A DNA stretch of 64,000 bases from Candidatus Gottesmanbacteria bacterium (GCA_963790805.1 CAWBPL010000002.1:384696-448695), one strand, 5' to 3'; positions 4,217 to 28,437 are shown, numbered from the stretch's first letter. Made by a program: numbers and translations. Notes: generated from the letters alone by a model not told the origin.

Positions 4217-4433
4217 GAAGAATGAGCGCAAGAAAAAAAAGAAAAATAATAAGAGCAAGATGAACGTAGGTAAGAACTCGCAGAACCGGTTCAAACCCTT
4301 CTTCCAATACATGCGCCATCGTACTTTCCTGCCGAACCATGACTCCGGCAAATACAATATACACCGCGATACCAAGTAGTGTAAAAAGTTTTAAGATAAG
4401 CCACGCTTCTGGTGGAATCGTAACAGGTATCAT
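4212..4433 (-). CDS. Small two-TM membrane protein (function unknown)
   Basis: The 73-aa product has two hydrophobic helices. Its start overlaps the stop of the upstream gene by 4 nt (ATGA), which suggests translational coupling. Confidence 0.45.
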   Translation of the reverse strand: MIPVTIPPEAWLILKLFTLLGIAVYIVFAGVMVRQESTMAHVLEEGFEPVLRVLTYVHLALIIFLFFLALILL

Positions 4434-5086
4434 AGTGAATCCCCGCCTTTTTCTGTAAGAGACCGAATGGTTTCTACAACGCGTTCAGGATGAGGCACCT
4501 TCTCAAACACCAAATTTGGGGCTTCCCCCGCGGTTTCTATAATGACATCACCATAATCAAAAATAGCAGCAAAAATACCGCCGGCGTCAAATGATATATC
4601 CTGAATCTTGTTCAGCTCCGCCTCGGCAAAATGCTTATAGAGAAGATAATAAAAATCAATATCCACTATTCGCTCATTGGTGACAATGTAAATATTAATA
4701 AACCAACCCAGTAATTTTGCAAGCACAAATCCGAATGTTGCAATATACCAAAGGGCCGTGCCGATAAAAATATACCCGCTCGGTAACGGGAGTGAAATCC
4801 GAATAATAGTAAATAATATAGGAAATAAGAGAGTAGGCGCAATGGCAAGGACTATGGCAATAAGTACCCATGGAACATTGACAATAACGTGTTGACGCAA
4901 AAAGAGAACAACGGTTTCCTGTTCTTCCTGCGTTTCAAACCTAACCCCCTCGGGATTCATGGCAAAACTCGTCAACGGCCCCATTTCCCCTTGAACGCCG
5001 CTTGTAGCCGGCTTGGGGGTCGGACTATTTGTCATCGTCCCACTTTTTGGTGGAGCGCTGGATGAAGAATCAAAGATCGTTGGCAC
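4430..5086 (-). CDS. Membrane protein with bacterial PH (YdbS/YdbT-like, bPH_2) domain
   Basis: It has a Pro/Ser-rich N-terminus and two long TM helices. The C-terminal region (NERIVDIDFYYLL...ISFDAGGIFAAIFDYGDVIIETAG) is typical of bPH_2/DUF304 proteins. Confidence 0.55.
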   Translation of the reverse strand: MPTIFDSSSSAPPKSGTMTNSPTPKPATSGVQGEMGPLTSFAMNPEGVRFETQEEQETVVLFLRQHVIVNVPWVLIAIVLAIAPTLLFPILFTIIRISLPLPSGYIFIGTALWYIATFGFVLAKLLGWFINIYIVTNERIVDIDFYYLLYKHFAEAELNKIQDISFDAGGIFAAIFDYGDVIIETAGEAPNLVFEKVPHPERVVETIRSLTEKGGDSL

Positions 5087-6979: not shown

Positions 6980-7441
6980 ATGAGATATATGGATCTGGTG
7001 GGACGAATACTCATTGTTTTGATGCTTTGTATGTTTGCCGTTAATGTTGTGCATGCTGATACACCGGCTCCGGCAACAGGAAAATTCAGCGAGGATTTTA
7101 TCGGGGCGTGTAATTATGCGGGAGCAAAATATAATGACTGTAAAACCTGTGCCCAAGGAAACGGTGTGTGGACGGCGTTCGGTTGTGTACACCCCAACGG
7201 CGGGTCCATGTTTAACGTTATATTCCCAATTTTTATGGGCATGGCCGGAGGCATAGCATTTCTTCTTATCCTTTTTGGCGGGTTTCAGATTCTCATGAGC
7301 GCAGGGAATCCAGAAAAAATGAATGAGGGCCGCGAGCTTATTACCTCCGCAATTGCCGGACTTTTACTTATTATATTCTCAGTTTTTATATTACGGCTGG
7401 TCGGATACGATATTTTGCGTATTCCCGGCTTTCAACCATAA
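6980..7441 (+). CDS. VirB2/TrbC-like T4SS pilin-family protein with Sec signal peptide and Cys-rich N-domain
   Basis: It carries a signal-like N-terminus (LIVLMLCMFAVNVVHA|DTP) and a 5-Cys segment (GACNYAGAKYNDCKTCAQG...FGC). The shared pilin core follows: TM1-GGFQILMSAGNPEKMNEGRELITSAIAGLLLII-TM2. Confidence 0.65.
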   Translation: MRYMDLVGRILIVLMLCMFAVNVVHADTPAPATGKFSEDFIGACNYAGAKYNDCKTCAQGNGVWTAFGCVHPNGGSMFNVIFPIFMGMAGGIAFLLILFGGFQILMSAGNPEKMNEGRELITSAIAGLLLIIFSVFILRLVGYDILRIPGFQP

Positions 7442-7445
7442 TTTT

Positions 7446-7790
7446 ATGTACCACATACTGGCGCAGAATTTAACACTTCCCGGAGATAACTCGGCCATTT
7501 CTGGCCCCACCGGAATAAATGTTCTTCAGGATTCGAGTGGAAATATTACTCTTGGCAGCATCGTATCACGGGCACTTCCTTTAGTTCTTGCATTTTGTGG
7601 GGTATTTCTTCTTATCATGATCCTGTTTTCAGGATTTTCATATCTTACCAGTGCCGGAGATGAAAAAAAACTGGAACACGGGAAAAATCAACTTACGTAT
7701 GCTATTGTTGGTTTCATTATTATATTTACCGCATTCTGGCTCGTTCAAATACTCGAAACGATTTTCGGCTTGCCGACAATTTTTAAATAA
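7446..7790 (+). CDS. VirB2/TrbC-like T4SS pilin-family protein
   Basis: I use the in-frame ATG at 7446 (MYHILAQN...), because the ORF-track start at 7323 would overlap the preceding gene. Core motif: SGFSYLTSAGDEKKLEHGKNQLTYAIVGFIIIF. Confidence 0.65.
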   Translation: MYHILAQNLTLPGDNSAISGPTGINVLQDSSGNITLGSIVSRALPLVLAFCGVFLLIMILFSGFSYLTSAGDEKKLEHGKNQLTYAIVGFIIIFTAFWLVQILETIFGLPTIFK

Positions 7791-7794
7791 CTCC

Positions 7795-8484
7795 TCATCG
7801 ACCAAAACGCCGCTGCCGTAAATAGTAATCTGCAATAATTTCATCAAGCCGCTGGGGCGTAAAATCCGGCATAAACCACGGAGAAAAATATAACTCGCTA
7901 TATTCACTTTGCCAGAGTAAAAAACCGCTTAATCGCATTTCACCGCCCGTTCGGATAATAAGCTCTGGATCGGGAATCCCCGCCGTATCAAGATACTCAC
8001 TAAATTCTTTCTCAGTAATATCTCTCTTTTTATTGTGACCACATTTGTGCATGGCGCGTATAATTTCGTTTCTTCCGCCATAGTTTGCCGCAAATATGAC
8101 GGTAATTTTTGTATTATTTCGGGTGCGATCAATAAAATAATGAATCGATTTTTGAATGTCCGGCTCAAATTTTGATATATCCCCTATTGCCTTAATTCGA
8201 ATTCCCTTTTTATGCATTTTTTCTCCAAAATGTCCGAATCCCCACCGGAGAAGATTCATAATCCCTGTCACTTCTTCGTTATCGCGCCGCCAATTCTCGG
8301 TTGACCATGCCCATAGCGTTAAATACTGAACGCCGACGCTTGCTGCATGCTCGATAAGTTTTTCCAATACATTGGTAACAACCCGCCTGTGTCCTTCCGA
8401 TATCGGAAGATTATGCTCACGCGCCCACCGGCGGTTCCCGTCCATAATAATCGCTATATGTTTTGGTGCTTGTTGTGTTTTCAT
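7795..8484 (-). CDS. uppS: Undecaprenyl-diphosphate synthase (cis-isoprenyl transferase)
   Basis: Carries HIAIIMDGNRRWA, LTLWAWSTENWRR and RTGGEMRLSGFLLWQ. Confidence 0.93.
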   Translation of the reverse strand: MKTQQAPKHIAIIMDGNRRWAREHNLPISEGHRRVVTNVLEKLIEHAASVGVQYLTLWAWSTENWRRDNEEVTGIMNLLRWGFGHFGEKMHKKGIRIKAIGDISKFEPDIQKSIHYFIDRTRNNTKITVIFAANYGGRNEIIRAMHKCGHNKKRDITEKEFSEYLDTAGIPDPELIIRTGGEMRLSGFLLWQSEYSELYFSPWFMPDFTPQRLDEIIADYYLRQRRFGR

Positions 8485-8489
8485 AATTT

Positions 8490-9470
8490 CTAAAATAAAT
8501 GGGTATCCGTTAATACGGTTCCGGCGCTTGGTTTATTCAGCAACACGGATTGTACACCCGAACACGCTTTCAGCGCATCCGCTACCCGCATCGCATTGTT
8601 CGCTTCGCAAATACAATGGACATTGGGTCCAGCGTCAATCGTAAAATACACGGGAATCCCCTGAGTCCGTAAATCCCCAACACATTCAATGCACTTCATC
8701 GTTCCCTGATTCCAATAAAAGAGCGACGGCACCTGCGTCATCATGACCGCATGCATGGAAAGACAATCCGCTTCAATCGCTTCTCCCAATAATCGAATAT
8801 CTTTTGATTGCATCGCATCTCTTACTTGTTGTAACCTGTTTGGAACATCGAGGAATCTCTTTTTCCAAAATGGACTCGTTGTTGCCTTATCCATCCCGTC
8901 GGTACTTGTTACTTCTTTTGATCTCTTCTCGACAATAGCAAGAACATCACACAAATCCCAGTGTGTTGATGGATACAAGGAATAGGCATAAGATTCCTCT
9001 GACGTTCCTCCCGTTTTCCACTCAACAAACCCGTCTGGAATAGAACGACATGCTGATCCGGAACCAATACGCGCCAATACCGTTAATTCTTTTCCGCTGA
9101 GCGATAGTCCTAAAGCTGCGGCGGCAGCAACGGTGAGCGCAGCAAATCCCGATGCAGACGATGCAATCCCTGTTCCTTTTGGAAAGGTATTCGATGTTAC
9201 GATCTTTGCACAAAGAGTGCTTTGCGCAATTCTTCGAATCCGATCAAGATGGGAAATAATGCGATTCACTTCTTGTTCCGAAAATATACCATCCGCTAAA
9301 ACAACACTATCGTGAGCATGTGCTTGAGAAAACTCGACGGTAGTCGTCGTTGTCGTGCCGGATAGATTCATGGAAATAGATGAATTTGCCGGAATTCTTA
9401 AAGCATCATGTATTTTACCCCAATATTTGATAAATGCGATGTTTGCCGGTGCTGTCGCCGTTTTTTTCAT
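8490..9470 (-). CDS. mvaD: Diphosphomevalonate decarboxylase
   Basis: The N-terminus is APANIAFIKYWGK, followed by GHMP-type GTGIASSASGFAAL. It overlaps the upstream gene by 4 nt. Confidence 0.9.
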   Translation of the reverse strand: MKKTATAPANIAFIKYWGKIHDALRIPANSSISMNLSGTTTTTTVEFSQAHAHDSVVLADGIFSEQEVNRIISHLDRIRRIAQSTLCAKIVTSNTFPKGTGIASSASGFAALTVAAAAALGLSLSGKELTVLARIGSGSACRSIPDGFVEWKTGGTSEESYAYSLYPSTHWDLCDVLAIVEKRSKEVTSTDGMDKATTSPFWKKRFLDVPNRLQQVRDAMQSKDIRLLGEAIEADCLSMHAVMMTQVPSLFYWNQGTMKCIECVGDLRTQGIPVYFTIDAGPNVHCICEANNAMRVADALKACSGVQSVLLNKPSAGTVLTDTHLF

Positions 9471-10951
9471 ACCAGTATCCCCGCTTCTTTGAGCGCTACT
9501 TCCGCTCCTTTTGTTAACTGGATTTTTCTGCTCACAACGTCAAACCGAAGTTCCCGGATATCAAAATATTGCACGCTATCGACCTCTTCGGGATGTAGAG
9601 TAAACGGTCCGTCGCTTTGTCCTTTATATATCGCTGCGCGCTCGGTTTCTTTCTCATCCCGTACCATACATGTTTTTAAAAAGGTTAACGGCACATCAAT
9701 ACCCAATTCTTCCGATAATTCACGGTGCACCGCTTCATCATCTGTCTGACCTTTCGTCACGTGGCCGGCGGAGGATATTCCCCATAATCCCGGATCCATG
9801 TCTTTGGTCATACTCCGCTTTTGCAAAAGAAGTCTTCCCGCATGATCAAACAATAATACGCCAACCGTCCGATGGATAAGTGTCGGGTTGTGGTGACATT
9901 CAAAGCGCGTTTTATATCCAACAACCGTATCGCTTTCGTCAACAACAATGAAAAGTTCGTCCTGATTATCGGTAGTCTCAACACGTACGCCCTGCGCATC
10001 GGGAAGAACATCCATCACTTGCCCCCCTGCTTTTTGAATTGCCTCTGCAACAAGCGCACATTTGTCTTTTGCAGCAAGGGCAATCATGCAATCACCGCCG
10101 CCGGCTCCCGAAAGTTTTGCTCCCCATGCACCGGCACCTTTGGCTGCGCTCACGAGTGATTCCAACTTCTCGGAGCTTACTCCTAAATCGCGAAGATAGT
10201 CCTGATTAAAATCCATAAGTCGCCCGACACGCTCCCAGTCTCCTTCCAAAATTCTTGCTTTTGCTTCAACGACAAGTTTTTCTATCGCCTGAAATATCCG
10301 ATCAACTTTTTGGGGGTATGCCTTTCGCTTTTCGGCAACCATCGTTACTAACTGTGCCGTGTCCGCTTTTACTCCCGTATACCCGACAATGAGAGGTATT
10401 GAGGAAATCTTTATTGGTTCTATGACTTTCCCACCGCCAACAAAAACAATTGTTCCCCCCCAGATTGCTGCTGCAACATCAAATCCAGATCCTACACCTT
10501 GAACATCCAAAATAGTTTTATAGGCAATATCAAAAAGCTGTTTTTGAGACAATGGTGTGCAAGTAATCGATGCGAGCGCAAAAAGCACTGCAACGGTTGT
10601 TGCCGATGAAGATCCAAAACCAAAGGTTGAAGAAAAGCCTGCGTGCGTTTCAATACGGATTCCCGACGGAAGCGGATATCGTTCAACAAAATTTCGAACG
10701 GCAAATTCTGCAAACTGCGCCTGTTTGGGAATTTCACCGATCCCAAGATCTTTTATTGGCTTTTTATATCCCTTAATGTGTATGTCCGAAGCTTCCAGTT
10801 GAAAATCTGCTGAATCAATTAGGGAAGCAGATGCATGAATTCTTTGATCAACTGCAGTTACAAGACTCGAGTATCCATAGACAACCGCATGATCCCCCAT
10901 GAGAAGTAATTTTCCCGGAGCACTCACGCTTATGGATTGGTTATTTTTCAT
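9467..10951 (-). CDS. Phosphomevalonate kinase (GHMP) fused to a C-terminal Nudix / type-1 IPP-isomerase-like domain
   Basis: The N-terminal ~330 aa carry APGKLLLMGDHAVVYG, GFGSSSATTVA and QGVGSGFDVAAAIWGG (PMK-like). The C-terminal ~165 aa carry HHNPTLIHRTVGVLLF...LLLQKRS..KD..PGLWGISSAGHV...EAVHRELSEELGI, which aligns with E. coli Idi and the Nudix box. I place the start at ATG 10951, preceded by AAGGGA. The ORF-track GTG at 10972 is also possible. Confidence 0.8.
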   Translation of the reverse strand: MKNNQSISVSAPGKLLLMGDHAVVYGYSSLVTAVDQRIHASASLIDSADFQLEASDIHIKGYKKPIKDLGIGEIPKQAQFAEFAVRNFVERYPLPSGIRIETHAGFSSTFGFGSSSATTVAVLFALASITCTPLSQKQLFDIAYKTILDVQGVGSGFDVAAAIWGGTIVFVGGGKVIEPIKISSIPLIVGYTGVKADTAQLVTMVAEKRKAYPQKVDRIFQAIEKLVVEAKARILEGDWERVGRLMDFNQDYLRDLGVSSEKLESLVSAAKGAGAWGAKLSGAGGGDCMIALAAKDKCALVAEAIQKAGGQVMDVLPDAQGVRVETTDNQDELFIVVDESDTVVGYKTRFECHHNPTLIHRTVGVLLFDHAGRLLLQKRSMTKDMDPGLWGISSAGHVTKGQTDDEAVHRELSEELGIDVPLTFLKTCMVRDEKETERAAIYKGQSDGPFTLHPEEVDSVQYFDIRELRFDVVSRKIQLTKGAEVALKEAGILV

Positions 10952-11897
10952 CAAGTCGTATCCCTTCTTCACCTAATCGAACTGCACCAATACTATAGTT
11001 ATATTGTTTGCATATTTTCTCGATTGCCTGTTTATCACTGTGATAACAAAGTAAAAATCCAACTCCTTTTTCTCTGCCGCCGCCCCCTAAAATCTTTGCC
11101 GCAGCACCCAGCGCTTCAATCTTTCGAATCAAAGGGATTACGGTTTTACTGACCACTCCAAATCCCTCCAGTGTTTTTTCTCCCATCCGCAATGCATCAA
11201 TGAGTTCTTTTTCTTGACCCTCTTTCAACGCTATCGTAATTCGCTTAACCTGAGATTCGTTTTCATTAAGGAGTCGATCCATTTCTAACGGATTTTTTTC
11301 GTACTGTTTTCGCACAAATGCCACCATGTCTCCCGTCGACTCGAGAGGTCGTCCGGTGTTAATGAGGAAAAAATGATTGAGTTGAGCGGGTGGTCGAAAC
11401 GGCAACTGCCAAATACTTTTAAGAAATTCTAATTCCCGGCGATACCAGATAAAGCCTCCCATCGTGACTGCCGTATTGTCGCCGCCGGACGGATTACCAT
11501 GCTGTTTTTTTTCAATCTCATACGCAAGCTCGTTTATCCGGATGGGGTTCCAGATTTTTTTATAAAAATACATGAGTGCTGCGCTTATGCCAACCGCGAG
11601 TGCCGCCGATGAACCCAAATGAAATCCGGCTGGAATGTCGGAATCGATCGTCAACGTAACCGGTTTTGTATGAACAATGTTTAACTGCTTCATGACATAC
11701 AAAACTGCATAGCGAGCATGTTCGATAGATTCCGAAGATTGAATCGTAATATCGCTATTTTTTTTGCCTATCAAAGAGGGTTCGGAAATGCTCACGCGCA
11801 TTCGCATGTCGATAGCCGCAAGAAGAGCCGGCTTACCATACACCACCGCATGTTCACCCATGAGATGCACCTTGCCTGGAACGGAAACGGTAACCAT
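10941..11897 (-). CDS. mvk: Mevalonate kinase
   Basis: Carries VPGKVHLMGEHAVVYGKPALLAAI, GFHLGSSAALAV and KKQHGNPSGGDNTAVTMGG, all mevalonate kinase signature regions. Confidence 0.8.
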   Translation of the reverse strand: MVTVSVPGKVHLMGEHAVVYGKPALLAAIDMRMRVSISEPSLIGKKNSDITIQSSESIEHARYAVLYVMKQLNIVHTKPVTLTIDSDIPAGFHLGSSAALAVGISAALMYFYKKIWNPIRINELAYEIEKKQHGNPSGGDNTAVTMGGFIWYRRELEFLKSIWQLPFRPPAQLNHFFLINTGRPLESTGDMVAFVRKQYEKNPLEMDRLLNENESQVKRITIALKEGQEKELIDALRMGEKTLEGFGVVSKTVIPLIRKIEALGAAAKILGGGGREKGVGFLLCYHSDKQAIEKICKQYNYSIGAVRLGEEGIRLDEK

Positions 11898-11899
11898 AG

Positions 11900-12199
11900 C
11901 TAGACTGGTTTAACTTTTATACCGTACGGAATAACGTCATCAGTTTCTATTTGTATTGTCCGCCGGACAACCGTTACGACACGCTGGCCGATAACAAGAT
12001 TCTTTACATCATAATCCACCATTTGAGCCGCAAGAGATTCGCCGGTATCTAACTTCACAAGTGCAACTGGATAGGGCGCCTGATATCCAAAATCCGCCGG
12101 AGGAAGCCGGATAATGGTCCATGAAACGATCACGCCGGTTTTCCCGACCATTCGGGCGACAAATTTTTGATTTCTCCAAACCTTTACTGGACTGATCAT
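11900..12199 (-). CDS. DUF35-type OB-fold protein (thiolase/HMG-CoA-synthase partner), lacking the Zn ribbon
   Basis: The 99-aa product has an OB-fold-like sequence (GVIVSWTIIRLPP..., ALVKLDTGESLAAQMVD). It sits immediately downstream of the thiolase and HMGS genes, as in the archaeal trio. It contains no Cys residues. Confidence 0.65.
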   Translation of the reverse strand: MISPVKVWRNQKFVARMVGKTGVIVSWTIIRLPPADFGYQAPYPVALVKLDTGESLAAQMVDYDVKNLVIGQRVVTVVRRTIQIETDDVIPYGIKVKPV

Positions 12200-12203
12200 A
12201 TGA

Positions 12204-13358
12204 TTATAGTGTTAATATGTGTACTGTTGCCGTCGCACCGCTTCCTCCGACGTTATGGGCAAGTCCGACTTTTGCACGCGCTACTTGTCTTTTTTGTGCG
12301 CGACCACGCAACTGCTCAACTAATTCTGCAACCTGCTTCACGCCCGTTGCACCTACAGGATGACCGCATCCTTTCAGCCCGCCGGATGGATTAACAACGA
12401 ACCGTTTTGATTTCCCAAGTGTTGTCTCTCCGGCCGCAATTCCTTTTGCGGCTTTCCCTTTCGCATAAAATCCAAGATCTTCCATCGCAAGAATTTCAGC
12501 GATAGAAAAACAATCATGTACTTCCGCAACATCTATATCATTTGGTTCTACTCCCGACAGTTCGTACGCACGCTTTGCTGCACGCTTTGTCGCAGCAAGC
12601 TCAGTTAAACTGCTGCGCTGGGCCAAGCCTAATGTGTCTGTTGCTGTCGCTGACGCAATAATGCGCACGTTTGAATTTGCTGATTCAGTGTATTTTTTGT
12701 TGCTCGTTATGATAAGCGATGCGGCACCGTCAGAAATAGGCGAACAGTCTAAAAGCTTTAACGGGTCGGCAACACATGGACTTTTCATAACCTGTTCGAC
12801 AGAAATGAGCGAGTGAAATTGCGCATTGGGATTTAATGTCGCATGATAATGATTTTTTACAGAAACTGCTGCAAGATCTTCCTCTGTCGTTCCATACGTA
12901 GACATATGAATCCGAGAAAGAAGCGCGTATAGACCCGGAAATGTTGCCCCAGCCAATCGTTCCCCCTCGCTTCCGGCTCCCATAAGGGCGGTGGCCACAT
13001 CTTCAGGTTTATGGTCCGTCATTTTTTCCACTCCCAAAACGGCAACTGTTTGATATTGTCCCGACAATACAGCGTTAACTGCATTGTGAAGCGCTAATCC
13101 ACCTGATGCACAGGCGCCCTCAATTTTAAATGCAGGGACAAAGAGGCCAAGTTCTTCGGCAAAAAATGCTCCCAAATGTTCCTGACCGCCAAGCATGCCT
13201 GAAAGCATATTACCGACAAAGAGTGCTTCAATCTTGCTCGCTTCTATTTTGGCATCCAAAAGAGCGTTACCAACCGCCTGACCGGCCAAAGCGCGCGGAG
13301 ATATACCCCACAGTTCACCAAATTTTGTTGTCGCAGCTCCCAGTACAAAAATATTCAT
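12204..13358 (-). CDS. Acetyl-CoA acetyltransferase (archaeal/SCP-x-type thiolase)
   Basis: Carries GAATTKFGE, the active-site region IEGACASGGLALHNAV and the C-terminal GHPVGATGVKQV...NVGGSGATATV. Confidence 0.9.
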   Translation of the reverse strand: MNIFVLGAATTKFGELWGISPRALAGQAVGNALLDAKIEASKIEALFVGNMLSGMLGGQEHLGAFFAEELGLFVPAFKIEGACASGGLALHNAVNAVLSGQYQTVAVLGVEKMTDHKPEDVATALMGAGSEGERLAGATFPGLYALLSRIHMSTYGTTEEDLAAVSVKNHYHATLNPNAQFHSLISVEQVMKSPCVADPLKLLDCSPISDGAASLIITSNKKYTESANSNVRIIASATATDTLGLAQRSSLTELAATKRAAKRAYELSGVEPNDIDVAEVHDCFSIAEILAMEDLGFYAKGKAAKGIAAGETTLGKSKRFVVNPSGGLKGCGHPVGATGVKQVAELVEQLRGRAQKRQVARAKVGLAHNVGGSGATATVHILTL

Positions 13359-13359
13359 A

Positions 13360-14403
13360 TTAAATTTTATGAGTTTTTTTCAAGTATCCGACGTAATCAA
13401 TATAAACTTTCTTTTCAATTTGTTGACAAACTAATTCACCTTCTTCTTTCCGCTTTTTTTGCAACGGAATCATTTCATCTTGCACTTGCCACAAAAATGC
13501 GTCACTACCAGCTCCTGACCCATAAGAAACCATGAAAATAGTATCTCCTGGTTTCGCCTGATCCAGAGTGGCTGCTAACCCTAAAAGCGAAGCAGCGGAA
13601 TAGGGGTTGCCGATGCGATCAACGATTAAAGACGGCGCCAGCTGGGTGGCAGTAAATCCAAGCCGTTTGGCGGCTTCTCTTGGAAATTTTGCATTGGGCA
13701 TATGAAACACACAATGGGTTACATGATCTGGTGTTATCTTTGCTTTTTCCATCAGACTTTTTGCGGCACCCAACACATGAGCAAAATAGGCCGGTTCTCC
13801 GGTAAACCGTCCTGCGTGGGTAGGATATCGGATGCCATCACGCCGCCAAAAATCCGGCGTATCCGAGGAGTAGGAAGTATAGGACAGAAGCGTCGCAATA
13901 GTATGCATTGACCCTAATAGAAATCCTGCTCCTGCCGACGCCGATGTATACTCGAGCGCATCGTGCGGCTTACTCTGCGCCGTATCTGATCCGATAGCCA
14001 ACCCATAATGAATATGCTCGGATTCAACAAGTCCGGCGATTGCCTGCATGCCTGCTGTTGCCGCTTTACATGCAAACTCGAGATCAACAGCCAGATAATG
14101 ATTACCAATCCCAAGAAGTTCACCAACGATGGTTGACGTTGGATTTACCGCATACGGATGACTTTCTGATCCGACAAACAAAGCTTCAAGATCTGTGGGT
14201 TTACAACCGCTGAATCGAAGTGCGCTCTCACCCGCTTCAAGCGCAATAGTTACTGAATCTTCGTCAATGCCCGGCACAGATTTTTCTTGAATTCCAAGCG
14301 AACTCGCGATTTCTTTTCCATCTTTTCCCCACACTTTCGCTATATCTTCAAGGGTCACCCGATATCGGGGTATGTATGTACCATATGAAACAATTCCCGT
14401 CAT
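13360..14403 (-). CDS. Hydroxymethylglutaryl-CoA synthase (short, archaeal-type)
   Basis: The 347-aa product carries GIVSYGTYIPRYRV, DEDSVTIALEA, the catalytic Cys region DLEFACKAATAG and VSYGSGAGSDAF. Confidence 0.88.
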   Translation of the reverse strand: MTGIVSYGTYIPRYRVTLEDIAKVWGKDGKEIASSLGIQEKSVPGIDEDSVTIALEAGESALRFSGCKPTDLEALFVGSESHPYAVNPTSTIVGELLGIGNHYLAVDLEFACKAATAGMQAIAGLVESEHIHYGLAIGSDTAQSKPHDALEYTSASAGAGFLLGSMHTIATLLSYTSYSSDTPDFWRRDGIRYPTHAGRFTGEPAYFAHVLGAAKSLMEKAKITPDHVTHCVFHMPNAKFPREAAKRLGFTATQLAPSLIVDRIGNPYSAASLLGLAATLDQAKPGDTIFMVSYGSGAGSDAFLWQVQDEMIPLQKKRKEEGELVCQQIEKKVYIDYVGYLKKTHKI

Positions 14404-15575
14404 AGTGCGCCCCCTCTGCCAAGTTGTGCGTGGGCTCGCGCCAGCGTTCCTTCTTCAAGAGATGCAAGAAGTGAAATTTCTCCAGCCAATATCGCTGCGC
14501 CAGCTATTTCAGCAAAAAGACGTGCATTATTGCCGTTATCCCCTCCGGCAACTCCTAACATCGAAAGGGCCTCGTGTTGGGTCGCAAGTCCAGTTCCGCC
14601 TCCAACTGTACCGATCATCAAATCCGGAACGTATACACATACATATAAATCTTCGCCAGACAAAACTTCTGCGGTTGTCACACCCAAACTTCCTTCAACG
14701 ACATGCGCCGGATCCTGACCGGTAGCTAAAAATAATGCCGCGACCACATTGGCAAATTGGGCGTTAAATGCCATGGACCCGCTCATAACACTTCCCAGCA
14801 TACACTTGGCTAACCACACATCGTACATCTTTTGCGCTGTCGTTTTGAGAACTGTAGCAAGCACGGTTTTTGTCAACACAACTTCCGCCCAAACTTTAAT
14901 TCCTCGTTTTCCAAGAACATTGAGCCATGAAGGTTTTTTATCAACACAGTAATTTCCGGAAAGCGCCAAGCACTCAACTCCGGTTTTTTCCTGCATATAC
15001 GAAGCAATCGCTTCTGTCGCTATTGTCACCATGTTAAGTCCCATCGCGTCCTGCGTATCAAAAACAAACCGGACATACCGGTATCTCCCGATTCCTGTTG
15101 AGGAAAACGATGTGAGCGCAAGATGGTGAGATGTTTTGGCGGCGATCGCCTTGAGTTCATCAAACCGCGTATCCAAAAATGTACGAAGCGTTCTGTTTTC
15201 CGCTAGATTTTTCACCCGAAAAACCGGTCCTCGGGTAGCCCCTATTTTGTGGCTATCAACAATCGCTCCGCCGCTTTGCGTAATCGCCTTGCATCCGCGA
15301 TTAATTGACGCCACAAGCGCTCCTTCTGTTGTCGCAAGTGGTATATAATACTCTTTTTCCCTGTGAGCGATGGGGTTTGAAATGTGCGATTGAATCCGTA
15401 AAGGACCGGCAACTCCCACGGGAATCTGAGCTACTCCAATCATATTTTCACAATTTCTGGTTGAAGCGGCTGCTTCATCGAGCGTAAATGAGCCGATATG
15501 AGGCAGCTTAATGTGAAGCTCTTTCTCAAGCATCTCTCGCCGTTTCCCCGCCGATGTTCCTTTGCGTATATTCAT
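14400..15575 (-). CDS. HMG-CoA reductase, class I type
   Basis: Carries ENMIGVAQIPVGVAGPLRI, IPLATTEGALVASINRGCKAI, DAMGLNMV and GTVGGGT. The TTEGxLVAS motif is class I rather than class II. I place the start at ATG 15575 (MNIRKG...), a 4-nt overlap with the upstream stop. The ORF-track start at 15725 adds a Cys/Phe-rich extension inside the neighbouring gene. Confidence 0.9.
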   Translation of the reverse strand: MNIRKGTSAGKRREMLEKELHIKLPHIGSFTLDEAAASTRNCENMIGVAQIPVGVAGPLRIQSHISNPIAHREKEYYIPLATTEGALVASINRGCKAITQSGGAIVDSHKIGATRGPVFRVKNLAENRTLRTFLDTRFDELKAIAAKTSHHLALTSFSSTGIGRYRYVRFVFDTQDAMGLNMVTIATEAIASYMQEKTGVECLALSGNYCVDKKPSWLNVLGKRGIKVWAEVVLTKTVLATVLKTTAQKMYDVWLAKCMLGSVMSGSMAFNAQFANVVAALFLATGQDPAHVVEGSLGVTTAEVLSGEDLYVCVYVPDLMIGTVGGGTGLATQHEALSMLGVAGGDNGNNARLFAEIAGAAILAGEISLLASLEEGTLARAHAQLGRGGAL

Positions 15576-16189
15576 ATAAACGGTATACGAAAAATTCCCA
15601 ACCGATACATGCCGACAGTATAGAATCCTAAAATCGGCAACACGATGGCTGACAAAAGCACAATTTTCACAAGGTCCATTCGAAAAGCAAAACGCAATGT
15701 GAGATACGAAAGAATGACTTTCCAAAATAAAAGAATTGCGGAAACGATAAGATACACGATGCTAAACGCCACCCCGAAAAATCTTGTCGTTCTGGGCGGC
15801 GGCAATATGATGTAAAGAAGAAGTGTTATCCAAAACCAGAGAAGCGTTGGAATCATGCTGTATCCCCAACCGACGATAAGTCCCCGAAGATTTGTGGTGG
15901 CCCGCAATAACCGCCCGACCCCCCAGAAAAGCGAAACAGCCAATATTAACGTTAATCCTGTGGCTGATGCAAGCGTTATAAATTGCCGTGACAATAAAAA
16001 CGGTTCGAAAAGCGATTGTTTAACCAATGAAACGGTAAGCAAATAACACAGTATTAAAGCGACAACAAACGCGAATTCTCCTATATTTCCATGTTCAACT
16101 ATCCGTCGGCATGTTTCATAGGGCCTCGTGACAATGCCCACAAGATTCCGTCCAAACGATACACCAACCGTTGTAATCGAATTTGACAT
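15572..16189 (-). CDS. Polytopic membrane protein (Yip1-like, tentative)
   Basis: It has about five hydrophobic helices after a short soluble N-terminus (MSNSITTVGVSFGRNLVGIVTRPYETCRRI). I choose the start at 16189 to avoid overlapping the upstream small gene. Function unknown. Confidence 0.45.
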   Translation of the reverse strand: MSNSITTVGVSFGRNLVGIVTRPYETCRRIVEHGNIGEFAFVVALILCYLLTVSLVKQSLFEPFLLSRQFITLASATGLTLILAVSLFWGVGRLLRATTNLRGLIVGWGYSMIPTLLWFWITLLLYIILPPPRTTRFFGVAFSIVYLIVSAILLFWKVILSYLTLRFAFRMDLVKIVLLSAIVLPILGFYTVGMYRLGIFRIPFI

Positions 16190-16239: not shown

Positions 16240-16470
16240 CTAAAACCCGCGCTGGAGGATGCTCACAATGAGTGTTATCGTAGAGCCAATAAGTATATAT
16301 AAAGCCAGAACAAAGAGAATTCCCGATAAAACCAGAGCCGGCCACGGCATAACTTTAAGCCGTTTGACTGCTCGTTTATATATCGGCGTTAGAGGTCCAA
16401 CGGTCTGAGGTGGAACTTCGGTCACTTCTTCCCACCGCTTCACAAATTTTGTATAAATCGTATCTGCCAT
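16240..16470 (-). CDS. Small single-pass membrane protein, candidate anti-sigma factor
   Basis: The 76-aa product has one TM helix and lies 8 nt downstream of the ECF sigma gene. The call is by position only. Confidence 0.4.
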   Translation of the reverse strand: MADTIYTKFVKRWEEVTEVPPQTVGPLTPIYKRAVKRLKVMPWPALVLSGILFVLALYILIGSTITLIVSILQRGF

Positions 16471-16478: not shown

Positions 16479-17030
16479 TTAAATTGATAAAAATATCTCG
16501 ACAAACGCTTTTCTTGCCCGAAATAACTGTGATTCCACGCTTTTTAAAGAAACCGCAAATTTTTTCGCGATTTCCGCAACAGACAGGTTTTCTTCGTATT
16601 TGTAGACAATGAGCTTCCGATAGTGAGGCAATATTCGAGCCAGCACGTTATGAATTTTTTCTTTCAACATGGTTGTATCAAGCTCTTCCTCAGGGTTTAA
16701 TATCGGTGAAACCAGCATTTCAAGATTGGGCGTTTGCGAAAAAACTATGTGCCGAAGTTTTCGTCTCCTGTAAAAATCGATAATTTTGTGGTGACAAATC
16801 GAAAAAAGAAACGTTGAAAGACTGGAATTTCCCTGAAAATCACGGATCGCTTCCAAAAATCCGTAAAGCGTATCTTGTAGTATCTCTTCCGCGTCGGCGG
16901 GATTATCGATACGGGCACGGATAAAAGCCGTAAGTCTGGGGGTGTAGCGGCGATAAAAAAGCGAAAGCGCCTGTCGATCACGGGAGAGAATCTGACCAAT
17001 AAGCTTGCTGTCATCGGTGTTTTGTCGCAT
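16479..17030 (-). CDS. ECF-type RNA polymerase sigma-70 family factor
   Basis: Region 2 reads LSLFYRRYTPRLTAFIRARI...AEEILQDTLYGFLEAI. Region 4 reads YRKLIVYKYEENLSVAEIAKKFAVSLKSVESQLFRARKAF. Confidence 0.85.
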   Translation of the reverse strand: MRQNTDDSKLIGQILSRDRQALSLFYRRYTPRLTAFIRARIDNPADAEEILQDTLYGFLEAIRDFQGNSSLSTFLFSICHHKIIDFYRRRKLRHIVFSQTPNLEMLVSPILNPEEELDTTMLKEKIHNVLARILPHYRKLIVYKYEENLSVAEIAKKFAVSLKSVESQLFRARKAFVEIFLSI

Positions 17031-17117: not shown

Positions 17118-17438
17118 ATGAAACAGGTCTTCGCGCAAGTAGATATCGGAACCTATTTTCAACCGGCACAGCACTTTACGACACTGGGAAGTCTGGTTTC
17201 AGTGATCATGCCCAATGCATTTATTTTAGCCGGTATTATCGCCTTTGTTTTGTTAGTTTTCGGCGGATTTGGTATCATAGTAGGCGCAGGATCCGGTGAT
17301 CCGAAAAAAATAGAACAGGGAAAAAAGGCAATCACGGGGGCAGCGATTGGACTTATTATCATCGTTGCATCCGTCTGGATCATACAAATTATTGAGACAA
17401 TAACAGGAATGAACGGCAAACTCCTGCCATTACACTAA
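17118..17438 (+). CDS. VirB2/TrbC-like T4SS pilin-family protein
   Basis: N-terminus MKQVFAQ..., two TM helices flanking GGFGIIVGAGSGDPKKIEQGKKAITGAAIGLIIIV. Confidence 0.7.
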   Translation: MKQVFAQVDIGTYFQPAQHFTTLGSLVSVIMPNAFILAGIIAFVLLVFGGFGIIVGAGSGDPKKIEQGKKAITGAAIGLIIIVASVWIIQIIETITGMNGKLLPLH

Positions 17439-17439
17439 T

Positions 17440-17796
17440 ATGAATGTGCTCGCTGATGAAATAAGCGGTGTTGTCGGTACCATTACCATGCCCAATGGAT
17501 TTCAAAACGTCGATTCAACCTCCGGCGGTTTCGCCGTATTATTTAGTAATATTTTACGGCTGGTGTTTGTGGCTGCCGGCATCTTTGCATTTATCAACTT
17601 CATCATTGCAGGATTTGAATACATGAGCGCAGCCGGAGACAGCAAAAAGCTTTCCGCCGCACTGGATCGCATATGGTATTCGCTCTTAGGGCTTGTCGTA
17701 CTTGTGGGTTCATTTGCATTAACTGCGGTTGTTTCTCAGTTGTTTTTTGGTAACCCAACGTACATATTAAATCCGACGATTACGGGACCAAAATAA
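17440..17796 (+). CDS. VirB2/TrbC-like T4SS pilin-family protein
   Basis: Starts 1 nt after the previous stop. Core motif: AGFEYMSAAGDSKKLSAALDRIWYSLLGLVVLV. Confidence 0.7.
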   Translation: MNVLADEISGVVGTITMPNGFQNVDSTSGGFAVLFSNILRLVFVAAGIFAFINFIIAGFEYMSAAGDSKKLSAALDRIWYSLLGLVVLVGSFALTAVVSQLFFGNPTYILNPTITGPK

Positions 17797-17799
17797 TCT

Positions 17800-18183
17800 A
17801 TGATCTTAACTGACAATACTCTTCATTTAGGACCAATTGGCGGAAGCGGCTTGGGGCCATTTAGTACCATCGGAAGCTCTAACAATGGGTCGGCGGGTAT
17901 CACCGGCGTTGCTGATCTTGTCAGCTCCGTTATCGGAATTCTGACAGTCGTTGCAAGCGTCTGGTTTTTGTTAAATATTCTCTTCGGCGGATATGAATGG
18001 ATGTCAGCAGGCGGCGATTCCAAAAAAATCGGAGAGGCGCGCGATCACATTACCCATGCATTTATCGGACTTGTCATTGTTGTCGGTGCATGGGCGCTTA
18101 CCGCAACCGCTGGTCAATTCTTTGGCTTTAGCATATTGGATCCGGCAAAATTATTCGGGACCCTGCCTATCAACGGCAAATAA
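17800..18183 (+). CDS. VirB2/TrbC-like T4SS pilin-family protein
   Basis: Starts 3 nt after the previous stop. It has a Gly/Ser-rich N-domain. Core motif: GGYEWMSAGGDSKKIGEARDHITHAFIGLVIVV. Confidence 0.7.
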   Translation: MILTDNTLHLGPIGGSGLGPFSTIGSSNNGSAGITGVADLVSSVIGILTVVASVWFLLNILFGGYEWMSAGGDSKKIGEARDHITHAFIGLVIVVGAWALTATAGQFFGFSILDPAKLFGTLPINGK

Positions 18184-18184
18184 T

Positions 18185-18541
18185 ATGACCCATGTATTGG
18201 CACAGATCGTAAATCCTGTATTACCAAGTAGTATTGGAGGGAAAGGCTCATCAGGAGATCAGGGTGGCACAGCGCTGGGCCTGCTTGTCAGCAATGTTGT
18301 AGGCGGACTGTTTATCGCCGGATTTCTTCTCGCACTTGTTTTTTTGGTCATGGGAGGATTTACATGGATTACCTCCGGCGGAGATAAAACAAAACTCGAA
18401 AAAGCACGCGACGAAATCACAAATTCCCTCATTGGCATTGTTGTTGTAGCCGCAGCATGGGCTATTGCAACATTGGTTGCGAAATTCTTTGGCATGGATT
18501 TATCACATTTACCCATTCCTTCCATTCCGGGAGGAAACTAA
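18185..18541 (+). CDS. VirB2/TrbC-like T4SS pilin-family protein
   Basis: I use the in-frame ATG at 18185 (MTHVLAQI...), 1 nt after the previous stop. The ORF-track start at 17993 would overlap the preceding gene. Core motif: GGFTWITSGGDKTKLEKARDEITNSLIGIVVVA. Confidence 0.7.
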   Translation: MTHVLAQIVNPVLPSSIGGKGSSGDQGGTALGLLVSNVVGGLFIAGFLLALVFLVMGGFTWITSGGDKTKLEKARDEITNSLIGIVVVAAAWAIATLVAKFFGMDLSHLPIPSIPGGN

Positions 18542-19436: not shown

Positions 19437-20942
19437 TTGGACAATAGAAATGTGAAGCGCATATCGTGGTTTATCCAAATAGCACTTGCTGTCTTTCTTT
19501 TCCTCCTCATACCGGCGAGCCGGAATCTATTTATTTACGGTAATTCTTCCGTCTTGGCGGCTCCAGCTCCTTATCTAGAACAGAACTACGCCACAGATAC
19601 GGATAATGCAATCAAAAATCAGCAGGTAAGCCTTACTCCCATTACCGAACAAACCAGTTTTGTCGACATGCACTGGTTAACATGTCACATCATTACCTAT
19701 TATTACAACGGCCCGTATACCTGTACGCAGGACGAAACAATATATAAAACGTCAATGAAATCAAGTGCACTGGGCAACATCGCCATGGGCATAAATACCA
19801 TGTACGAAAATCCGCCGGCGGACCTCGCGTATTGGGTGCAGGACACTGCGCAATCACTTGGCATTGCGCCAAGACAGGTATACGCGCAGGGTATCGGATT
19901 TACGGGTCTTGCCCCTTTATTACCGGTATGGAAGGCGTTTCGCAATATCGCCTATCTTGTTTTAGCCCTTGCGATGATAGTAATCGGATTTATGGTTATG
20001 TTGCGCAAAAAAATCGATCCGAAAACCGTGGTTACCGTACAAAACTCAATTCCGCGCATTGTTATCGCTCTTATTCTTATCACATTTTCCTATGCAATCG
20101 TCGGGCTGTTTATCGATGTGATGTATCTTCTGATGGGGTTTTTATCAATAGTCGTCCAGGGGGCACTACCCAATACAACCCTCGGAAAGTCTCTTATACC
20201 CATAAATTTTTCTAATCCGGGATTTGTTGACCTTATTCGTGCTGTTCTTACCCCTGCCGGCGAAATGAGTCCTTCAACCTCAATGATTAATGATTTTTAT
20301 CACGGAGACGTATTGGGAGGGCTTTTAAACATGATTGGTACCGGGATATTTTATGGTACTGGGATCGGTTTCATATTTATGTTTATTATTACGATCGCGT
20401 ATTTAATCGCATTTATCCGCATACTTATGATGCTTCTTAACAGCTACGTTCAGATTCTCTTAGCGGTTTTGACCGGCCCGCTTCAAATTCTTGTCGACGT
20501 ATTTCCCGGAGCCGACGGATTTACATCATGGGTAAAAAATCTTGCGGCGAACCTCATCGTTTTTCCGGTTACCGCGCTTCTTCTTATGGTTGCTGATGTC
20601 ATTACACAATACACCGGCAGTCAGACGCTGTGGACTCCGCCGTTTTTGCCGCAAACCATTTATTCCGGCACGTTACCGGTCGTCGGCAATGTGACGGTTG
20701 GCGGTATGGGCGGGCTCGCTGAGGGAATTATTGCTCTTGGCATCGTCCTTGCAATCCCCAGTATCGTCAACGGCATAAAGGAAGCGCTCAAAGCCAAGCC
20801 GCTTATCAGCAGTGGTCTTGACGTGGTCGGCGGACAGGTGAAGGGAGCCTTCCCGATTGCTCTCCAGCTCGGTGGCATGGCGCTACAACATCAGCAAATG
20901 AGTCAATTCGGTAAAATGCTGGGACAGGGAAAAGAAGAATAA
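19437..20942 (+). CDS. Polytopic membrane protein, candidate VirB6/TrbL-like T4SS channel component
   Basis: The 501-aa product has an N-terminal signal/TM, an exposed domain of about 130 aa, and then at least 6 hydrophobic helices. It lies immediately downstream of the pilin array. The call rests on topology and context only. Confidence 0.4.
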   Translation: MDNRNVKRISWFIQIALAVFLFLLIPASRNLFIYGNSSVLAAPAPYLEQNYATDTDNAIKNQQVSLTPITEQTSFVDMHWLTCHIITYYYNGPYTCTQDETIYKTSMKSSALGNIAMGINTMYENPPADLAYWVQDTAQSLGIAPRQVYAQGIGFTGLAPLLPVWKAFRNIAYLVLALAMIVIGFMVMLRKKIDPKTVVTVQNSIPRIVIALILITFSYAIVGLFIDVMYLLMGFLSIVVQGALPNTTLGKSLIPINFSNPGFVDLIRAVLTPAGEMSPSTSMINDFYHGDVLGGLLNMIGTGIFYGTGIGFIFMFIITIAYLIAFIRILMMLLNSYVQILLAVLTGPLQILVDVFPGADGFTSWVKNLAANLIVFPVTALLLMVADVITQYTGSQTLWTPPFLPQTIYSGTLPVVGNVTVGGMGGLAEGIIALGIVLAIPSIVNGIKEALKAKPLISSGLDVVGGQVKGAFPIALQLGGMALQHQQMSQFGKMLGQGKEE

Positions 20943-20968
20943 GTACCGTGATATTTGAATGAAACTTC

Positions 20969-23900
20969 TTACTCTTTGTGCTCTTCACCACCCATTCCGG
21001 AAACGATAGTACCCCCAACAATAATAATCGTTCCGTACACTGCAATATTTGATCCGGTAAAGCTCCACACGCCGCTTGGCGCCCGAAGATTCAAACCCTC
21101 GACAAACCGTGAAAACCGTTCGTGTGCAGGAACGTTCTGCATAAATACGCGGCCGATGGTGTTATTAAAGATATTCTCAAAAAAACGTGTCCTGTGTGTA
21201 TATGTCTGTCTCTTATGGGCAAACAGATTCGGTAACACTCTGTGAATCAATTTTGACCGGCGGCTGTCTGGAGGAAGCCTATCAGCTGCGCTTCGGATAG
21301 CTTTTGCCACAGGGTTTTCTTTGTGTGCTCGATAACTGCGACGACGCATTGTTAAAATATTTCTCCAGTTTGAAATACCGGTTTGCGATTCAGTTGCCTC
21401 AAAGGTGGCGGGTGCGCGGTGACTGAGCGCTCCTCTTGTTGCCTGAATCTTATCCACAAATCCGTGCCGCTCATCTACCGTCCACGATGGTGAATGGGTT
21501 GAATTCGTCGCCTTTCTCAACCGAGAACTCAAATTAAGCCACTTAAACCACCGCCACGTTCTGGTTTTTGCAGCGTCCAGATATCCCGAAAGCGCTCCGC
21601 AGGTAGAAACACCCGCATCTGTTTCGGAATTGTAGCCGAAAAATGTTGAATCCATCGTAACCATTGATTTCATCGCCGCTTCAGGATCGGCTTCCATAGT
21701 GCCCATAAAGTTTGTTATCTGGTCTTTTATACAGAGCCGGAAATCATGCATGCCGGTTACCCACAAACCCGTACGCCCCCGCCCGCGATCGGAAATCGCG
21801 CGGGATGCCGCTATATTGTCTTTTGCTTTCATCATAAGCGCGGCTGTCTCCGCATCCGCCTCTTCAGCAAAAATACTCATAAGATTTGTTTTTTCGACCT
21901 GCGTTAAAGGAATATCGTCGGTCCACAAAACGGATGAAAATTGATGCGCATATTTAACATCAAGAAAATCATCTATATGGGTAGAAACGTCTGTATAATA
22001 TCCTTTCATTGATGCTAAAAACTCATCGGGTTTCATGGGCGCTGCATCTGCCAACTTATCAAAAACATGCCGGAAGACGTCCTGCTGCATCGGTGTCCAC
22101 TGATTAATCTCCTGTGCGTTACTGGCAAGTCCGTAATGTATGGGCAACTCTCCGCGCATTTGAAGCTCATGATTAATAAGGTGAAAAAGGCGTACAGAAT
22201 CGTTGAGCTTCTTTTCTTCTGCGGCAGTAAGGCGCATTTCGGGATGATAATATTTTGTCTCAACGGCATGGCGCGCGCGGTACAACATGTGGGGGTGCGT
22301 TTTGGCTGCTGCTTTAAGTTCGTTGGTAAAGCCTTTGTCCCCAATTGCATCGTGACGCTCAATTTTCGGATTAAAGTAAGATTCGGCAGCTCCATATAAT
22401 CTTCCGCCCACCATAATCCCGTTTTCCGGATTTCCGTTGTCATCCAAACCTAAAGGGGAAACGAAATTGTGTTCAAATGCGGGAGCATATCTCGGATGCA
22501 GTCTTACCGCCCGCAGAACAGCGTTGCGCCGGACACCGCTTTTCCAGAAACCGTAAAAATTGATCGCATCGCGCTGGGCAAAATCACCCCCAATGTCTAC
22601 CAACACATAATGAAGAAGATTGTCACGGTCATCCTTAAATAAATGCATGCCTCTTGGGGGATCTTTATCGATTGTCGCAAAAAAACGAGCATATTCGGCG
22701 TCTGATCCGTTCGGAGCCAAATTCATCTTATGGTGATAATCTGCAAATATGCTCTTGAGCTCAAGAAACGTCGAATATTCATCAATTTTCGGCTTTAATT
22801 CAACAGGGACCGAATCAAACGAAGCGTTGGGATTTAATTCAAGAAACCTTTTAACATCAGCAAAATACCCCTTGTGATTTGCATGCTCCCATTCCTCCAT
22901 ATGAAGCCAGTCGTGACCATAACCGTTTTGTCCGTGTATTTTGTCATATAAAATATTCGTCCTCTCCATTCCCCAATCAAATAACTTATCGTCTTTTTCA
23001 ATATACATAAGGCAGCGGCCCTGCCAGATGGTCCGTGCATGGTCGGTCCAGTTGCGCCATTTGCGCAAAAACATATCGCGTACGCGATCGGCAAATCCTT
23101 CGCGGTCAACCCATGTTGCTCCTGCAAACGAGGTTATGTCGCCGACATCCTCACCTGCTATCGGCGTCGCGGCAAATGTATACGTATCCTCCTGCTGTTC
23201 AAAGCGGAGCATATACAGCGCTTCCGCGTACACACCGATGGACTTACACGTCTCCTCGCTATCAAGGCTCGTAATTTTGTTAATTTCTTGGAACATTTCA
23301 TCCACTGAAGGAGAGCCCTCACCAACAATATCTCTCATCTCTTCTAATTGCTGCCTTAGGTGTTTTGCATAATCCTCTTGATGTAAAGCGCGCTCTTCGT
23401 GCAGTTCTCTAACAGCCTCTTGCGTCGCCTGATGCCGCAATTCTGCGCTTGACCGGTGCGCTATACCCATACTCGGATGGTTGAGAAGTTCAATGTGATG
23501 CTCGCGGATTTTTTGCATCATAAGATCTCCGAGTTCTCCGTAATGGGCTCCTCCGCCAAAAACACCGCGATCTCCCAGAGATTCAACCATCTGCATCAAT
23601 CGTGTGTCATCCGCATAGCTGTCGCCGTGATTGAGTGCAACCACCAAATCAAGCGATCGGGCCCGGGAATGATAAATGTTCAGGGTTTCTGCTTTTTGGT
23701 TAATATACAACTGGCGATTATGGTAGACCCTGTCAAACGTTTCTTGACTGGTGGCTCTGTCAACCAAGACTTCCAAGCTTAATCCGTCTCCACCAACCAT
23801 CTTGTCGTAGGAATCCGACGTATACCAGTCAACGAGAAGCTTAAACCGCTGAAGCTTATCCTGAAAAACGTCGGATTCGTATCCGTATTCATAAATCATC

Positions 23901-28286: not shown

Positions 28287-28341
28287 GAGGCTATCTTATC
28301 ATACCTTCAAGATCTCAAGTAAAATTTTTGTACGCTCATTT

Positions 28342-28378: not shown

Positions 28379-28437
28379 GTCCTGATGCGCTTTGTGCTAT
28401 TGCGTGCCAAAGAAAACGTCCGTACAATATTAATACA

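Follow-up and report, generated by a model that had tools for sequence, protein, structure and literature searches.

A mevalonate operon of eight genes, ending in the gene for an undecaprenyl diphosphate synthase (UppS), is found in a stretch of 64,000 nucleotides (nt) from a Candidatus Gottesmanbacteria bacterium (GCA_963790805.1 CAWBPL010000002.1:384696-448695). This stretch, referred to below as the window, represents ~5% of a genome of ~1.22 Mb; family scans covered its open reading frames (ORFs) of at least 150 amino acids (aa). Very probably, the operon of this ~1.2-Mb genome is a Microgenomates operon encoding a hybrid route, in which an archaeal-type upper pathway is combined with a classical lower pathway to feed UppS. 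The arrangement is characteristic of Microgenomates, which belong to the candidate phyla radiation (CPR, Patescibacteria), and the main finding is already known in kind, because the gene set, its archaeal/bacterial mixture and the synteny with a cis-prenyltransferase gene were published in 2018 (Hoshino and Gaucher, Mol Biol Evol; PMC6107057).

The genes form an unbroken row on the minus strand from position 7795 to 15575, and all of them are intact in the ORF map. Searches with hidden Markov models (HMMs) returned strong full-length family matches for each of the eight genes, with E-values of 1e-14 to 1e-143, by which chance matches are ruled out. In the direction of reading, the row begins with a soluble class I (NADPH-type) 3-hydroxy-3-methylglutaryl coenzyme A (HMG-CoA) reductase, HMGR, of 391 aa (14400..15575, minus strand as for all operon genes; PF00368, E=4e-114, 382 bits). 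It is followed by an archaeal-type HMG-CoA synthase, HMGS (13360..14403; TIGR00748, 434 bits versus a cut-off of 353; NF003274, 475 bits, above cut-off), an archaeal-type acetoacetyl-CoA thiolase (12204..13358; NF004720, 478 bits versus 420) and a DUF35 protein of 99 aa consisting of the OB fold only (11900..12199; PF01796, E=6e-14). Next come a stand-alone GHMP kinase of 318 aa, the probable mevalonate kinase (MK; 10941..11897; TIGR00549, 160 bits versus a cut-off of 163), and a fusion protein of 494-501 aa (9467-10951/10972) composed of a GHMP kinase domain, probably a phosphomevalonate kinase (PMK; 9980..10951), and a Nudix domain resembling isopentenyl diphosphate isomerase (IDI; 9467..9979, stop codon included; PF00293). 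The row is completed by a diphosphomevalonate decarboxylase (MDD; 8490..9470; TIGR01240, 263 bits versus 171) and by the cis-prenyltransferase UppS (7795..8484), which matches PF01255 over positions 1-219 of 219 (E=3e-72) and TIGR00055 with 243 bits versus a cut-off of 109.55. Within the operon, neighboring genes overlap by 4 nt or are separated by no more than 13 nt, and the HMGS, thiolase and DUF35 genes lie 1-4 nt apart. At the upstream end, the start ATG of HMGR (15575) and the stop codon of a Yip1 gene overlap; at the downstream end, uppS faces a convergent plus-strand gene that ends at 7790. A first-pass annotation of the window had described an eight-gene mevalonate operon closed by UppS, and ORF map and family matches bear it out in both respects.

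The class of the reductase is evident from its scores: the class I NADPH model TIGR00533 gives 404 bits (just under the curated cut-off of 441.8), the class II model TIGR00532 no more than 46. Of the solved structures, the archaeal enzyme of Methanothermococcus thermolithotrophicus is matched best (PDB 6hr7, 345 bits), followed by plant and human structures with ~237-249 bits, while class II structures reach only ~23-27 bits. The class I assignment of the first-pass annotation stands. The motif TTEGALVAS, which it had named, is present in the translation as ATTEGALVASINRG; DAMGLNM and GTVGGGT are found there as well. We take the motifs TTEGxLVAS, DAMGxN and GTVGGGT to correspond to catalytic residues of the human enzyme. 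The soluble reductase would convert HMG-CoA to mevalonate.

For the preceding steps, each of three adjacent genes matches best one subunit of the thiolase/HMGS/DUF35 complex of M. thermolithotrophicus (PDB 6ESQ, 6ET9). The best solved match is 6esq_I for HMGS (355 bits), 6esq_A for the thiolase (318 bits) and 6esq_E for the DUF35 protein (41 bits, aligned to residues 50-128 only); the bacterial mvaS-type model TIGR01835 gives only 118 bits with HMGS. In contrast to its archaeal counterpart, the DUF35 protein of the window lacks the rubredoxin-like zinc domain, since the zinc ribbon is deleted, not a single Cys is present and only the OB-fold half is left. This ribbon has been lost in most Microgenomates, and the CxxC...CxxC pattern is kept in a distant CPR locus (L023) and in a Woesearchaeota locus (L028). 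Thiolase and HMGS would convert three acetyl-CoA into HMG-CoA, probably joined by the ribbon-less DUF35 protein as a scaffold, as in M. thermolithotrophicus. The archaeal flavor that had been ascribed to the whole operon therefore applies to HMGR, HMGS, thiolase and DUF35 protein, for which the best structure matches are archaeal; it does not extend to PMK and MDD, which belong to the bacterial/eukaryotic route.

The two kinases are probably to be assigned such that the 318-aa protein is the MK and the kinase domain of the fusion the PMK. A profile of the 318-aa kinase family scores up to 174 bits on MK structures versus 43 bits on PMK, and residues K9, E15, H16, S137, E129 and D140 are invariant in that family. 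Because a Lys/Asp pair, a Glu-His, a Ser and the Mg-binding Glu (Glu193 in the rat enzyme) are strictly conserved or catalytic in mevalonate kinases (PMC1851959), the invariant residues match the catalytic set of MK and indicate this function for the 318-aa protein. When 108 GHMP kinases of related loci are aligned, a Glu placed 11 residues before the catalytic Asp is present in all single-copy archaeal and Chloroflexi kinases and in the 318-aa kinase of the window; in the fused domain, the Mg-binding Glu position is occupied by V, I or T in 119 out of 119 homologues. A motif of the fused domain, GSGxD[VI]AA, recurs in PMK-like ORFs, for which the best model is PMK (e.g., L030:7475-8641). In genomes with two kinases, the PMK model gives 115-134 bits with orthologues of the fused domain, and 48 bits or no match among those listed with their partner kinases. 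An exchange of the two labels was considered, since the fused domain has higher scores on MK models and MK structures (160 versus 76 bits), but it was dropped on account of the missing Mg-binding Glu in the fused family and the complete set of MK catalytic residues in the 318-aa family. Public annotation labels the fused protein "mevalonate kinase". The MK and fused-PMK labels of the first-pass annotation thus survive the analysis of catalytic residues, missing Glu and PMK-type motif.

Within the operon, the PMK-type kinase gene lies directly upstream of the decarboxylase gene, with a 4-nt overlap. Among solved structures, the decarboxylase is closest to an enzyme of Anaerolinea thermophila, a member of the Chloroflexi (290-296 bits), which has been called a phosphomevalonate decarboxylase (PMD; PMC9254496). 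A PMD reading was prompted by this match and was discarded in view of the specificity residues. At the positions separating MDD from PMD, also termed mevalonate phosphate decarboxylase (MPD), according to Table 4 of Dellas et al. 2013 (PMC3857490), alignment with 2hk2, 6n0x and 6n0z reveals Tyr, Lys, Ser, Ser and Ser in the window enzyme, which is the MDD type. Tyr and Lys are contained in the string IKYWGK, two Ser in GSGSACRS, and the last Ser, together with a Met, in EVTSTDGM. In agreement with this, the chain of the Lys/Met variant, 6n0z, is matched slightly better than 6n0x, which has Asn and His there. The Chloroflexi likeness extends to gene neighborhood, since the MDD-like gene of two Anaerolineae loci (L025, L029) is paired with an orthologue of the fused kinase domain, as is the case here, and the decarboxylase is most like A. 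thermophila 6N0X. In the MPD/isopentenyl phosphate kinase (IPK) route of Roseiflexus, the decarboxylase is of the MPD type (PMC3857490), whereas the window enzyme has MDD-type residues and IPK is absent from the 64-kb window.

These data bear on an alternative for the lower pathway, by which mevalonate 5-phosphate would be decarboxylated as in haloarchaea and Chloroflexi, with IPK encoded elsewhere and a different role for the second GHMP kinase. The A. thermophila match, the MK-like HMM scores of both kinases and the IPK genes reported in some CPR members (PMC6107057) are in its favor; with MDD-type specificity residues, a PMK-type kinase adjoining the decarboxylase and the lack of an IPK in the window, it is improbable. 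The classical route through MK, PMK and MDD is the better reading on the same three grounds, and a lower pathway of bacterial/eukaryotic rather than archaeal type agrees with the mixture of archaeal and bacterial mevalonate genes described for CPR (PMC6107057). Even less probable is a recent horizontal import of the operon from archaea in place of a lineage trait. The upper-pathway enzymes are indeed most similar to M. thermolithotrophicus proteins, and a similar cluster occurs in the Woesearchaeota locus L028. But PMK and MDD are of bacterial type, the base composition of the operon equals that of its flanks (GC content 0.45-0.47 versus 0.43-0.47 out to ~28 kb), gene order including the upstream genes for a sigma factor, a 76-aa protein and Yip1 is kept across several Microgenomates lineages at 40-75% identity, and the CPR mevalonate enzymes form clades of their own in the trees of PMC6107057.

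Affiliation with this lineage is also apparent from the nearest homologues, which for HMGR are found in Patescibacteria/Candidatus Gottesmanbacteria at 63-84% identity and for the fused kinase likewise in Gottesmanbacteria and other Patescibacteria. Gene order was compared with related loci, numbered with the prefix L. The succession of sigma factor, Yip1, HMGR, HMGS, thiolase, DUF35, MK, PMK, MDD and UppS is intact in L002, L003, L013, L018 and L034; the same order is found in L012, L024, L021 and L026 except for genes inserted near the MDD/UppS end, with no match to the sigma gene in L021 and L026. Operon order is thus conserved in nine loci in all. In L021, the insertion between MDD and UppS is a polyprenyl synthase gene. 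Some relatives carry a gene for an S-adenosylmethionine-dependent methyltransferase between MK and PMK or for a HAD-family hydrolase between PMK and MDD (L003:9148-9987, L004:9147-10001, L007:7865-8929; L012:11961-12818, L016:938-1789); we know of no role of either in the mevalonate pathway. Among more remote loci, ORFs of ~750 aa occur in Calditrichaeota, Planctomycetota and other bacteria (L030:8651-10915, similar in L033, L038, L043 and L079). The one that was scanned, L030:8651-10915, is a class II HMGR fused to a mevalonate kinase, and an IDI-like gene adjoins the ~750-aa ORF in five of five loci.

According to PMC6107057, the same mevalonate gene set is syntenic with the cis-prenyltransferase gene in most Microgenomates, the 2-C-methyl-D-erythritol 4-phosphate (MEP) pathway is sparse in CPR, and a type 1 isomerase (IDI-I) is counted among the CPR genes. 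The window cluster belongs to the same lineage and likewise adjoins a cis-prenyltransferase gene; it differs from the published cluster in that its only IDI-like sequence is a Cys-less Nudix paralogue fused to PMK. Term searches of the main text of that paper yielded no mention of the DUF35 protein or of a PMK-Nudix fusion, and its passages considered here do not describe the upstream module of sigma factor, 76-aa protein and Yip1 or the existence of two Nudix types. That mevalonate-using bacteria are Gram-positive cocci with class II HMGR, as the first-pass annotation presumed, is an outdated view in the light of the gene set published for CPR in 2018. The mva operons of the cocci (mvaS, class II mvaA, mvaK1-mvaD-mvaK2) have in common with the window operon the classical route through MK, PMK and MDD with enzymes of the GHMP family. 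They differ from it in that the window HMGR is of class I (404 versus 46 bits), its HMGS is of archaeal type (434 versus 118 bits), an archaeal-type thiolase and a DUF35 protein are present, and uppS is located inside the operon.

The fusion partner of the presumptive PMK, which the first-pass annotation had not named, is the IDI-like Nudix domain (residues ~336-494). The C-terminal 170 residues resemble type 1 IDI, but this domain remains below the curated cut-offs of IDI models (NF002995, 90 versus 127 bits; TIGR02150, 69 versus 105.8 bits). In common with the type 1 isomerases of E. coli and Salmonella (Idi; PDB 1NFS, 3HYQ), it has the Nudix fold, a metal site of three His and two Glu, and the diphosphate-binding Arg and Lys; in distinction from them, it is devoid of the catalytic Cys and possesses an intact REUxEE hydrolase box. 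Residue numbers used here are those which we take to apply to E. coli IDI, with the stretch Cys67-His69 cross-checked against 3hyq and 1ow2. At the position of Cys67 the window domain has Ala (SSAGH versus SVCGH in Salmonella IDI 3hyq); the E. coli IDI chain 1ow2 shows the same string, also with Ala at this position. In the 119 fusion homologues the position is occupied by A (92), G (16), S (10) or T (1), and in no case by Cys; 26 of them have a Cys at the neighboring position -1. The metal ligands His25, His32, His69, Glu114 and Glu116 are conserved in 95-100% of the homologues. Equivalents of Arg51, Lys55 and Glu87 are conserved in the domain as well; those of Tyr104 and Trp161 are not. The complete REUxEE box is conserved in the domain and missing from E. 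coli IDI.

Two IDI-like kinds are distinguishable in CPR loci, one containing the Cys and passing the model (134-184 bits), the other Cys-less and failing it (56-94 bits). Both occur as separate genes in one operon of two Woesebacteria-like loci (L022:8542-9132 and 10879-11478; L023:1674-2267 and 4314-4862). In a full-library search, the Cys was present in four of 184 domains among the 150 nearest cluster representatives, each time in a canonical IDI that forms the N-terminal half of a tandem fusion with a Cys-less domain (P0247, P0249, P0250, P0260), an arrangement which argues for separate functions. Members of the Cys-less family stand alone or in tandem and also occur as fusions to PMK or to canonical IDI. 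Judged by sequence, the Cys-less domain is a distinct paralogue tied to isoprenoid metabolism. A literature search revealed no paper describing a natural PMK-Nudix fusion. With regard to IDI-related Nudix hydrolases, the domain again stays below cut-off (E. coli YfcD, 67 versus 152 bits; methanogen NF041653, 54 versus 300 bits). A Nudix hydrolase specific for isopentenyl diphosphate (IPP) and dimethylallyl diphosphate (DMAPP) has reportedly been described in Methanosarcina mazei. Tentatively, the fused domain is seen as a member of a large, uncharacterized family derived from IDI which would not act as an isomerase, and could be a pyrophosphohydrolase or a flux-setting sensor acting on an isoprenoid or mevalonate diphosphate.

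The competing possibility, itself doubtful, is that the domain does function as a type 1 IPP isomerase, by means of a non-canonical base, so that the operon would provide both IPP and DMAPP and only the farnesyl diphosphate (FPP) synthase would be encoded elsewhere. It would be in line with IDI models being the best family matches of the domain, with the conservation of all five metal ligands, including Glu116, and of Arg51, Lys55 and Glu87, with the nearby Cys at -1 in some homologues, and with the need of the mevalonate pathway for an isomerase, for which IDI-I is counted in CPR (PMC6107057). Against it speak the uniform replacement of Cys67, the loss of the Tyr104 and Trp161 equivalents and the gap between 56-94 bits and the 127-bit cut-off that is passed by the Cys-containing CPR copies, and the co-occurrence of both kinds in L022, L023 and the four tandem fusions. 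Moreover, only part of the syntenic loci have a Nudix domain behind PMK, and no Nudix gene at all is present in the related operons L003, L013, L018 and L034. Since these four operons do without it, the isomerase can be encoded elsewhere in such genomes.

Returning to the hybrid route, MK, PMK and the MDD-type decarboxylase would lead from mevalonate to IPP, and from IPP UppS would build undecaprenyl diphosphate, which serves as carrier lipid in the synthesis of cell wall and surface glycans. The isomerization of IPP to DMAPP and FPP synthesis would have to be supplied from elsewhere in the genome, as they are not recognizable in operon or window. Among the window ORFs of at least 150 aa, no trans-prenyl diphosphate synthase (PF00348), no canonical IDI, no FMN-type IDI-2 and no IPK were found; the same ORFs, from ~5% of the genome, include none of the MEP enzymes (dxs, dxr, ispD-H). 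The first-pass view of a single unit reaching from acetyl-CoA to undecaprenyl diphosphate was consequently overstated, given that a trans-prenyl synthase is missing from the window and its sole isomerase-like sequence lacks the catalytic Cys.

Several points weigh against the hybrid-route reading. With trans-prenyl synthase, canonical IDI, IDI-2 and IPK all absent from the window, the route from IPP to undecaprenyl diphosphate is incomplete as seen. Both kinases of the window score best on MK models and below PMK cut-offs in the HMM searches; PMK models (cut-offs 166 and 500) give 85-89 bits with the fused domain, less than MK models do. Neighbor-joining trees with bootstrap did not group either CPR kinase family with any other group above 0.65 support. 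Formation of the thiolase/HMGS/DUF35 complex is not assured, because the DUF35 protein is without the zinc domain of every solved DUF35 protein, all of which bind zinc (PMC6996347). Finally, since the counts from scans for promoters and terminators did not exceed those in shuffled sequence, a single transcription unit is deduced from gene spacing only.

Upstream of HMGR, three further minus-strand genes accompany the operon. An extracytoplasmic function (ECF)-type sigma-70 factor is encoded at 16479..17030 (Pfam Sigma70_r2, Sigma70_r4_2, Sigma70_ECF), with a sigma gene at the same position in L002, L003, L012, L013, L018, L024 and L034. Eight nt after it lies the gene for a 76-aa protein with one predicted membrane helix (16240..16470), which tblastn detects between sigma and Yip1 in L002, L003, L013, L018 and L034 (51-72% identity) and with weaker matches in L012, L021 and L026. 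It is followed by a multi-pass membrane protein with a Yip1 domain (15572..16189; PF04893, 35 bits versus a cut-off of 28.6), whose ORF is open up to 16345 with ATG 16189 as the likely start; in nine related loci, a Yip1 gene immediately precedes HMGR. From its position after the ECF sigma gene, the 76-aa protein is suggested to be a candidate anti-sigma factor, so that the two may form a sigma/anti-sigma pair by which the supply of carrier lipid is controlled. ECF sigma factor, small membrane protein and Yip1 protein together would exert an envelope-linked control on the operon.

The cumulative GC skew turns at ~36-38.5 kb, in the region of dnaN (35703-36812) and dnaA (37005-38414), which marks the replication origin. 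Beyond the origin, at 38.5-64 kb, genes for glycan synthesis are located, among them Wzy_C twice, WecG/TagA, GT2, GT4 and DegT. The first-pass annotation had seen a small genome with operon and glycan genes on opposite sides of the origin, and the dnaA/dnaN position together with the skew switch confirms that layout. The glycan genes are typical of undecaprenyl phosphate-dependent synthesis and would be linked to the operon through the carrier lipid; a literature search on Patescibacteria and undecaprenyl retrieved nothing relevant. Over the glycan cluster (40000-64000), GC content falls from ~0.45-0.50 to 0.36-0.42, and the cluster may be variable or acquired. It is headed by a protein of the 'reversibly glycosylated polypeptide' family (41673-42647, plus strand; PF03214, 174 bits), a family whose best-known members are the UDP-arabinose mutases of plants. 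PQQ-like beta-propellers together with DUF5060 occur in two proteins of very large size (38508-41450, plus strand; 47237-50677, minus strand), and the latter has an N-terminal WecG/TagA glycosyltransferase domain in addition.

As regards the remainder of the window, six small paralogous T4SS_pilin genes flank the operon on the plus strand (6980-7790 and 17118-18541), and the region 26097-34691 encodes VirD4-like and VirB4-like ATPases, a PrgI-family protein and an M23 peptidase; as a set, these genes resemble those of a type IV secretion or pilus system. Two large ORFs, 501 and 1353 aa in length, are without Pfam match (19437-25030). At the other end of the window, a serine recombinase gene with Resolvase, Recombinase and zinc-ribbon domains (85-1458, plus strand) overlaps the 3' side of a transfer-messenger RNA (tmRNA) gene (1418-1832, minus strand; Rfam RF00023, 105 bits). 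Genes for tmRNA are common integration sites.

The operon adds one genome to the pattern of 2018 that has been used to argue for an ancient mevalonate pathway and for mixed archaeal/bacterial versions of it in CPR. Its ribbon-less DUF35 protein bears on how the thiolase/synthase complex holds together. If it is true that the fused Nudix domain is no isomerase, the operon encodes none, and published IDI-I counts in CPR would be too high; as the "mevalonate kinase" and isomerase labels are both doubtful, the route to DMAPP may be wrongly scored complete in reconstructions of small genomes. The conserved ECF sigma module, in turn, would offer a testable link from envelope stress to carrier-lipid supply in organisms not yet grown alone.

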